From the NCBI RefSeq assembly GCF_030013595.1, contig NZ_CP122768.1: a stretch of 64,000 nt of DNA; one strand, 5' to 3'. The stretch comes from Escherichia coli. GTDB lineage: Bacteria > Pseudomonadota > Gammaproteobacteria > Enterobacterales > Enterobacteriaceae. Both the position numbers and the translations under genes were made by a program. This document shows positions 4,420 through 5,659 of this stretch, piece by piece. A model generated the notes under the pieces. That model was not told where the DNA came from, made no database searches, and saw only the letters and a list, made by a program, of their open reading frames with translations. Each line of letters starts with the position of its first letter. The stretch's first letter is position 1.

Positions 4420-4447
4420 AGGCCCATGGGGATCGGCTGTGGGCCTG
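4420..4447. terminator. hairpin between convergent rhmA and ypaA
   Basis: Inverted repeat AGGCCCA ... TGGGCCT immediately after the rhmA stop. Confidence 0.4.
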
Positions 4448-4453
4448 TGTTAA

Positions 4454-4675
4454 TTAGTGGTTATTCGCTGCCAGATCGGCTTCGCTTAGCTGGGTGGCCG
4501 CGAGCACCAGGTCACGATCAATGCCCTGTTCCAGCATGCGCAAGGCAATTTTAATGGCTTGTTCACGCATACCTTCCTGCAAACCTTCTAATTTACCCTC
4601 CTGCCAGCCTTCAAGCTTACCTTCCTGCCAGCCAATCTGATGCCCTTCCTGCCTCAGCCGTTCAGCAATAGTCAT
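4454..4675 (-). CDS. ypaA: small protein duplicating the Rpn C-terminal tail (YpaA / RpnS-like)
   Basis: 73-aa ORF ([31 protein letters not shown]..) about 85-90% identical at DNA level to the 3' end of rpnB. AAGGAGAG lies just upstream of the ATG at 4675. Confidence 0.6.
   Translation of the reverse strand: MTIAERLRQEGHQIGWQEGKLEGWQEGKLEGLQEGMREQAIKIALRMLEQGIDRDLVLAATQLSEADLAANNH
4572..4643. repeat. three 24-nt tandem units encoding G-W/L-Q-E-G-K/M-x-E octapeptides inside ypaA
   Basis: Period-24 repeat read directly from the sequence (ccttcctgccagcc...). Confidence 0.7.
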
Positions 4676-4687
4676 CAATCTCTCCTT

Positions 4688-5659
4688 TTAATGACAGTTC
4701 GGAATATCAGCATCAGTGAGTTGGGTTGTCGCCAGCACAATCTCACGTTCAAAGCCCTGCTCCAGCATGCGCAAGGCAATTTTAATGGCTTGTTCATGCA
4801 TGCCTTCCTGCAAACCTTCTAATTTCCCCTCCTGCCAACCTTCAATTTTACCTTCCTGCCAGCCTTCAATCTTACCTTCCTGCCAGCCAATTTGATGCCC
4901 TTCCTGCCGCAGCCGCTCAGCAATAGTCATCAATCTCTCCTTTTGTAGTGGTGAACGTTCGGCAATCTCCTGAATAAAACGGGTGAAACGGGAGGTATCG
5001 CCGCATTGCAGCAGATAATTAAACAGCGTTTGTAGCTGGCTGTCATTAGTGAAGCCTCTAACCAAAAGCGTGGTGATCCTGTCGACCATACCGATTAAAT
5101 CGCGGTCGCGAATATGCTTTTGAATCAGTTCAAGCAGAGCTATACGCCGATGTTGCATGATCTCATCGTCAGGTACGATGGTGATATCCACCAACGGAAA
5201 AGCTTCGGTGTACAACTGCCGGGCAAGTTGCGGATCGTCAAACTCATCCAGCCAGTTGAGTGAGTACGGGTAGGGCGAGGTTTCGCCATGATAAAACAGC
5301 AATGGCACCACCAGCGGAACTCTGTCATAGCCTTTATCCAGGTGACGCTGCATGGCGGCAGTGGCATAGCGCATTAGCCGAAAAGCCATATTCTTTTCTG
5401 CAGAGCTTTGATGTTCAATCACGCAGTAGATATAGCCTTCACTGTCGCTGGTTTCCACAGACCACAAAACATCCGAGTAGTAAGCGCGTAAACTTTTTTC
5501 AATAAAGCTGGTGGGTTCCAGGCGTAAAGTTTGCAGGTTGCAAAGCTTGCGCAGCGGCTCTGGTAGATGTATTTCCAGAAAATCCCGAGCGGTTTCGGGT
5601 GTGAACATAAAGGTTTTAAACACCGCATCATGCGGGGAGGAGGTTGTTGATTCGGTCAT
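4688..5659 (-). CDS. rpnB: Rpn-family (YhgA-like, PD-(D/E)XK) recombination-promoting nuclease
   Basis: 323-aa ORF with an N-terminal D..E-H-Q nuclease-like motif (YIYCVIEHQ) and a C-terminal WQEGKxEG repeat tail. An internal AAAAGGAGAG + ATG (MTIAERL..) near 4930 sits in frame with the tail. Confidence 0.8.
4801..4896. repeat. four 24-nt tandem units encoding the octapeptide repeat tail of RpnB
   Basis: Units at 4801..4824 (degenerate), 4825..4848, 4849..4872 and 4873..4896. Confidence 0.7.

Follow-up and report, generated by a model that had tools for sequence, protein, structure and literature searches.

The closest described counterpart of the locus studied here is the rpnE-ypaA region of Escherichia coli K-12, for which two earlier studies are relevant. 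By the definitions of Kingston et al. 2017 (PMC5350276), RpnB is YfcI and RpnE is YfaD; the same authors found that residues D11, D63, E82, Q84, R94 and D165 matter in RpnA, and that K-12 RpnE showed no activity on overexpression when assayed for recombination, toxicity and SOS. Zhong et al. 2023 (PNAS, PMC10400941) reported that a small protein (RpnS) is translated from an internal start site in all five K-12 rpn genes, placed ypaA downstream of rpnE, and detected the proteins RpnE-L, RpnE-S and YpaA in K-12. Neutralisation of the cognate long form was shown for RpnA, RpnB, RpnC and RpnP2, with RpnA-S and RpnB-S each blocking its own long form only, and RpnA-S was found to be a three-helix-bundle dimer (Zhong et al. 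2023, PMC10400941).

According to the same study, repeats of four residues, placed within the first helix of the small protein, are variable in every RpnS and RpnSs protein of E. coli as well as in distant bacteria. One KGIE unit added to RpnC-S or to RpnC-L abolishes neutralisation unless it is present in both, an effect of repeat number on pairing that was described for RpnC and for a single added unit only (Zhong et al. 2023, PMC10400941). How the dodecamers expand and contract was said to need further study, and a fusion event between rpnE and ypaA was already mentioned (Zhong et al. 2023, PMC10400941). A parallel cited by these authors is HsdS of EcoR124I/EcoR124II, where the count of TAEL repeats, each of four residues, in a helical spacer changes specificity; these repeats alter by unequal crossing-over of 12-nt units.

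The locus in the window, by which we mean the whole stretch of 64,000 nucleotides of E. coli DNA that was analysed, is the same as that of K-12 (Zhong et al. 2023, PMC10400941; Kingston et al. 2017, PMC5350276), with the same neighbours glpC and yfaU and a common architecture, in which a long nuclease gene contains a small gene starting at Met244 and is followed downstream by a duplicate of that small gene. It is the allele alone that differs, as rpnE has 6 extra repeat units in the window vs 0 in K-12, and ypaA has 4 vs 1. The likeness to RpnC-L/RpnC-S (Zhong et al. 2023, Fig. 4D) consists in a four-residue unit (KGIE in RpnC) in the first helix, present in both forms; RpnC differs in being another paralogue and in that one unit was added, whereas the mismatch in the window amounts to 2 units (RpnE 6, YpaA 4). 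HsdS differs in that its TAEL repeats set the spacing of the DNA-recognition domains in a restriction enzyme and do not form part of a toxin/antitoxin interface.

Results

Identity of the nuclease gene

The 323-aa protein scores 721.2 bits against the NCBIfam equivalog model NF007418, with a cut-off of 583 bits, and this is the only equivalog model that it passes; the RpnA model NF007361 gives 414.6 bits and so falls under its own cut-off of 583. With TIGR01784 the score is 176 bits (cut-off 52.1). The product name attached to NF007418, "ISNCY family transposase", is the one borne by the genes labelled rpnE in RefSeq, and orthologues of the 323-aa gene are named rpnE there. Gene order is glpC-rpnE-ypaA-yfaU, with yfaU/yfaV on one flank and glpC on the other in the window, and the same neighbours surround the 900-nt (299-aa) gene of the K-12-derived strain EC600 (L001). 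The first-pass annotation had labelled the gene rpnB, which was wrong: locus, RefSeq name, NF007418 and the downstream position of ypaA identify it as rpnE (yfaD). Orthology with RpnB (yfcI) was rejected, as RefSeq name, locus and the published definitions all point to rpnE.

A length difference of 323 vs 299 residues from the K-12 protein, which the first-pass annotation had given for RpnB, does exist, 299 aa being the length of K-12 RpnE. The excess of 24 residues lies wholly inside the repeat array and corresponds to exactly six 4-aa units (Table 1). In the N-terminal 243 residues, the window protein and K-12 RpnE are identical at 238 positions, and D11, D63, E82, Q84, R94 and D165 (PDDE) are all kept in the window RpnE at the RpnA positions.

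Table 1. Positions of genes, domain, translation signals and repeat arrays of the rpnE-ypaA locus within the window.
Feature	Position	Strand	Basis
rpnE (yfaD) CDS, 323 aa; RpnE-L, Rpn/YhgA-type PD-(D/E)XK nuclease	4688..5659	-	ORF, NF007418, RefSeq naming, synteny
Transposase_31 / PD-(D/E)XK nuclease domain, aa 8-209	5033..5638	-	Pfam PF04754, E = 1.9e-87
Shine-Dalgarno stretch AAAAGGAGAGATTG, immediately 5' of the rpnE-S ATG	4931..4944	-	sequence reading
rpnE-S, 80-aa internal frame from Met244, predicted intragenic antitoxin	4688..4930	-	sequence, 12 of first 13 residues as in RpnA-S, translation in K-12 (Zhong et al.)
rpnE array, nine 12-nt (x-x-E/I-G) units	4802..4909	-	Tandem Repeats Finder and reading in 12-nt steps
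Six rpnE-array units absent from K-12 rpnE (72 nt, 24 aa)	4802..4873	-	comparison with K-12-derived EC600 (L001)
Shine-Dalgarno stretch AAAAGGAGAGATTG of ypaA, overlapping the rpnE stop codon (4688-4690)	4676..4689	-	sequence reading
ypaA (rpnE-Ss of Zhong et al.), 73-aa stand-alone second RpnE-S module	4454..4675	-	ORF, NF007418 alignment, DNA duplication
ypaA array, seven 12-nt units	4571..4654	-	Tandem Repeats Finder and reading in 12-nt steps
Strain-variable part of the ypaA array, last four units	4571-4618	-	allele comparison

The small modules RpnE-S and ypaA

The open reading frame of ypaA (4454..4678) has 74 codons, of which 73 remain when counted from the ATG at 4675, and its product can be aligned to profile positions 244-308 in the RpnE model NF007418. 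At the DNA level the 3' end of rpnE and ypaA are 87-92% identical at a spacing of 231 nt, and the same 14 nt (AAAAGGAGAGATTG), followed by ATG, stand in front of both Met244 and ypaA. These two features make ypaA a tandem copy of the 3' module of rpnE, extending from the ribosome-binding site to the stop codon. With its own ribosome-binding site and an in-frame start, rpnE-S is predicted to be separately translated in the window. A promoter scan found no sigma-70 consensus inside rpnE, although the scan must be considered insensitive given that internal transcription starts are published, Zhong et al. 2023 (PMC10400941) citing start sites inside all rpn genes.

Comparison of RpnE-S with the crystallised RpnA-S (PDB 7TH0) gave a weak match (E = 0.16) in two stretches, residues 1-13 and 41-76; among the first 13 residues, 12 are the same. 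From these stretches, the array would be an insertion in the region matching the N-terminal part of RpnA-S. Judged from this alignment, the repeats are inserted where the small domain of RpnA-S has its first helix, which fits the published placing. The array covers residues 8-43 of RpnE-S and its variable units begin at residue 20, while repeats in RpnS proteins were described as starting 8-20 residues after the Met. When the 80-aa RpnE-S was modelled with AlphaFold2 from its single sequence, the array came out unstructured at low confidence (pLDDT 44), so that the model is uninformative; predicted structures of this type are given by Zhong et al. 2023 (PMC10400941). The Pfam domain DUF4351, which Zhong et al. 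tied to stand-alone RpnS genes, was matched by neither protein at E <= 0.01.

RefSeq marks ypaA as a pseudogene fragment with a "missing N-terminus" and extends its drawn span to the rpnE stop codon; newer RefSeq records call it "Rpn/YhgA-type helix-turn-helix domain-containing protein". Between the convergent genes yfaU and ypaA, in an interval of 40 nt, there is a 10-bp G+C-rich hairpin (4420-4446). It is likely a terminator shared by the two, an assignment on weak evidence, as similar sites are about as frequent in shuffled sequence.

The repeat arrays

Two period-24 arrays, of 3.5 copies at 4803-4885 (score 111) and of 3.0 copies at 4562-4633 (score 88), were returned by Tandem Repeats Finder, which also output a period-12 row; both arrays are in frame within minus-strand ORFs. 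That both genes carry in-frame repeats had been noted in the first-pass annotation and is real, with its coordinates off by no more than about 10 nt. In 96-nt windows, self-identity at a lag of 24 nt reaches 0.81 in the rpnE array and 0.67 in the ypaA array, compared with a mean of 0.27 (sd 0.059) for the 64-kb background; the two arrays are the top two lag-24 windows of the entire 64 kb, and their repetition greatly exceeds chance.

Within the arrays (rpnE/ypaA), DNA identity is 0.77/0.73 at lag 24 and 0.42/0.47 at lag 12, and therefore the 24-mer consists of two alternating types of 12-mer, encoding (W/L)QEG and K(I/L)EG. Each 12-nt unit specifies four residues, G-x-x-x, so that glycine occupies every fourth position, and the GWQEGKI/LE octapeptides described earlier are present as such four-residue units read in pairs. 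At the protein level the arrays themselves give sub-threshold matches to Yae1_N (deca-GX3; E = 1.9e-4) and to FliH models (E = 1e-5 to 2e-8). In FliH/YscL (GxxxG-repeat helices) and in Yae1/Lto1 (deca-GX3 motif), helices with glycine at every fourth residue serve dimerisation; these proteins are not known to have a part in toxin-antitoxin or defence systems. As the matches stay below the curated cut-offs and the shared feature is the glycine at every fourth residue, we attribute the resemblance to motif composition and not to homology.

Variation between strains

The locus was found in 5,420 of 5,426 complete E. coli genomes, and among these 5,420 its length lies between 928 and 1279 nt and varies by multiples of 12. 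An alignment-span census with the 3' part of rpnE was only partly usable, as BLAST joined pieces across the duplicated modules, and our account of the variation rests on fetched loci and on a full-locus systematic sample of 40 genomes. Among about 25 fetched loci, rpnE has 0 (K-12), 1, 3, 5, 6 or 8 units beyond the core and ypaA has 0, 1, 2, 4 or 6. All differences in array length are multiples of 12 nt and in frame, and the small reading frames stay open. The 24-nt period proposed for the arrays is thus only part of the description: it is seen by Tandem Repeats Finder, but odd unit numbers occur (alleles with 1, 3 and 5 extra units), so that 12-nt steps exist besides those of 24 nt. That copy number varies between strains, making the antitoxin-bearing tail variable in length, is borne out by the alleles counted across the fetched E. 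coli genomes.

Arrays of equal length may differ in the order of their units. The rpnE array of the window has KIEG WQEG twice and then KLEG LQEG once, and that of strain HCP5S3_I2 (L002, NZ_CM149870.1) has the reverse proportions. The two loci differ at 11 of 1,831 positions, of which 10 fall inside the rpnE array (4826-4871), so that change is concentrated in the array. Having the same length but another unit order, the L002 array looks like the outcome of recent unit turnover rather than of point mutation. The ypaA array of two other loci (L005 and L020) is identical to the rpnE array of L002. The composition of the window rpnE array is uncommon in complete RefSeq genomes and was seen in two of them (L016 and L024), where it is combined with a different ypaA.

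Several fetched loci deviate in other ways. In L016 and L024, ypaA lacks two units, HQIG WQEG, that every other allele retains, which indicates that the "core" part of the array can lose units too. Strain XJ34 (L026, NZ_CP098231.1) has an rpnE of 317 aa with 4 units and a third type of C-terminal end (…TEADLAPLSLQ); its rpnE adjoins yfaY, and the neighbours found on the yfaU side of other loci are absent. The 3' end of rpnE is truncated by an IS2 insertion in L015 (NZ_CP157104.1), and a 1-nt frameshift, possibly a sequencing error, affects the N-terminal part of rpnE in L025 (NZ_CP059723.1), where the RpnE-S frame is intact.

Loss of ypaA by fusion

In the systematic sample of 40 genomes, an expanded rpnE array together with ypaA was present in 13 and the K-12 type (0 units in rpnE, 1 in ypaA) in 10, while one locus was disrupted by IS2. 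The remaining 16 have no separate ypaA; genomes of this kind include O157:H7 and B-type laboratory strains. The fetched loci comprise a single representative of the main K-12-type class (1123 nt) and one of each span class without ypaA (952 and 928 nt). The two without ypaA, from O157:H7 strain G5295 (L010) and strain PEC1020 (L011), proved to be fusion alleles in which the N-terminal part of rpnE continues in frame into a tail and array of the ypaA type. Recombination of the two modules, which are spaced 231 nt apart, would be expected to give this outcome, with ypaA deleted and its tail fused onto rpnE. Going by these alleles, fusion is a second route of change, absent from the first-pass annotation and concerning about 40% of the sampled genomes.

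Discussion

Probable routes of array change

Near-identical 12-mers at a spacing of 24 nt, together with modules of 87-92% identity at 231 nt, suggest that the arrays probably change by slipped-strand mispairing or unequal recombination. By such events they would gain or lose 12 or 24 nt at a time and stay in frame, and the modules themselves may recombine in a way that deletes ypaA and grafts its tail onto rpnE. From the allele patterns, slippage, unequal recombination and exchange between modules are all plausible routes.

It may be asked whether the variation arises mainly through exchange of the rpnE tail with ypaA, by gene conversion and unequal crossing-over, and not by slipped-strand mispairing within an array. 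The high identity of the modules would favour such exchange, the fusion alleles show that the rpnE tail and ypaA do recombine, and one and the same array occurs in rpnE of L002 and in ypaA of L005 and L020. However, the window and L002 have identical ypaA genes from which neither of their rpnE arrays could have been copied, which points to an event within the array, and the window shares its rpnE array with L016 and L024 but not the ypaA array. We regard a predominance of exchange between modules as possible but doubtful; it and slippage within arrays are not mutually exclusive.

It is improbable that the arrays are neutral, a slippage-prone low-complexity sequence in a decaying paralogue, with RpnE inactive, ypaA a pseudogene fragment and array length functionally meaningless. 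The lack of activity of K-12 RpnE in all assays of Kingston et al. (PMC5350276) would agree with this, as would the RefSeq status of ypaA, its absence from about 40% of the sampled genomes, and the rpnE copies disrupted by IS2 (L015) or frameshifted (L025). Yet decay is difficult to reconcile with array lengths that differ by multiples of 12 nt only and small frames that remain open at roughly 25 loci, with the conservation of the catalytic residues, or with a Shine-Dalgarno stretch and ATG that are identical and intact in both small genes. RpnE-L, RpnE-S and YpaA have been detected as proteins in K-12 (Zhong et al. 2023, PMC10400941), all but six of 5,426 genomes have the locus, and where ypaA is lost, this occurred by an in-frame fusion that keeps a complete tail and not by decay. 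The construct with which K-12 RpnE was overexpressed and found inactive probably also gave expression of the co-encoded small protein.

An on/off phase-variable contingency locus was considered and rejected, as the units are of 12 nt and the frame is kept in all array-length variants seen, so that protein length changes and not the expression state. Finally, although short tandem repeats can in principle be mis-assembled, we found no support for the extra units being an assembly or sequencing artefact of the window, and this is refuted by the occurrence, in exactly this form, of the 323-aa protein on 68 and of the 73-aa protein on 63 contigs of independent sources, by the identical rpnE array in the complete genomes L016 and L024, and by array lengths (84-108 nt) below that of a sequencing read.

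Proposed pairing of long and short forms

The locus is the E. coli rpnE-ypaA module, which very probably combines a repeat-tuned pairing of its products with in-frame turnover of its arrays, its function being deduced by analogy with the paralogues. Like the short forms of RpnA, RpnB and RpnC, RpnE-S would bind the long form and block its expected toxicity. It is probable that the helix by which long and short forms pair is made longer by the repeats, and their number would then set which short form neutralises which long form.

In the 13 distinct combinations of rpnE and ypaA alleles, the two arrays are unequal in length in every case, with rpnE usually the longer. Selection for such inequality has no statistical support, as the marginal distributions predict about 0.7 equal pairs among 13 combinations and the strains are not independent. 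The inequality goes beyond the available text of Zhong et al. and is non-significant. If the published result on RpnC mismatches applies here, a mismatch between the arrays of rpnE and ypaA would prevent neutralisation. One might then speculate that YpaA is no redundant antitoxin for the RpnE of the same cell but a stored alternative tail cassette, an idea to which we give only a small chance. If it were true, the long and the short form of RpnE would change their C-terminal specificity together, through deletion-fusion or gene conversion.

Implications

Strain-variable dodecamer repeats, internal RpnS antitoxins and ypaA as a second copy of RpnE-S are already published (Zhong et al. 2023, PMC10400941), and in the literature since 2023 we found nothing relevant on ypaA, rpnE, RpnS or DUF4351 beyond that study. 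The proposal of a length-variable, antitoxin-bearing tail is accordingly correct but not new, being the main message of that paper, and the window contributes one more allele, with 6 units in rpnE and 4 in ypaA, of a published hypervariable region.

For annotation, the gene should be given as rpnE/yfaD and not as rpnB, and ypaA as a real small gene and not a pseudogene fragment. The current RefSeq labels for rpnE ("ISNCY family transposase") and for ypaA hide a small gene whose protein was detected in K-12. Differences in length between assemblies at the rpnE-ypaA locus are to be taken as genuine. The repeats probably lie at the interface that pairs the intragenic antitoxin with the nuclease toxin, and the speed at which they turn over is read as evidence of an arms race with phages.
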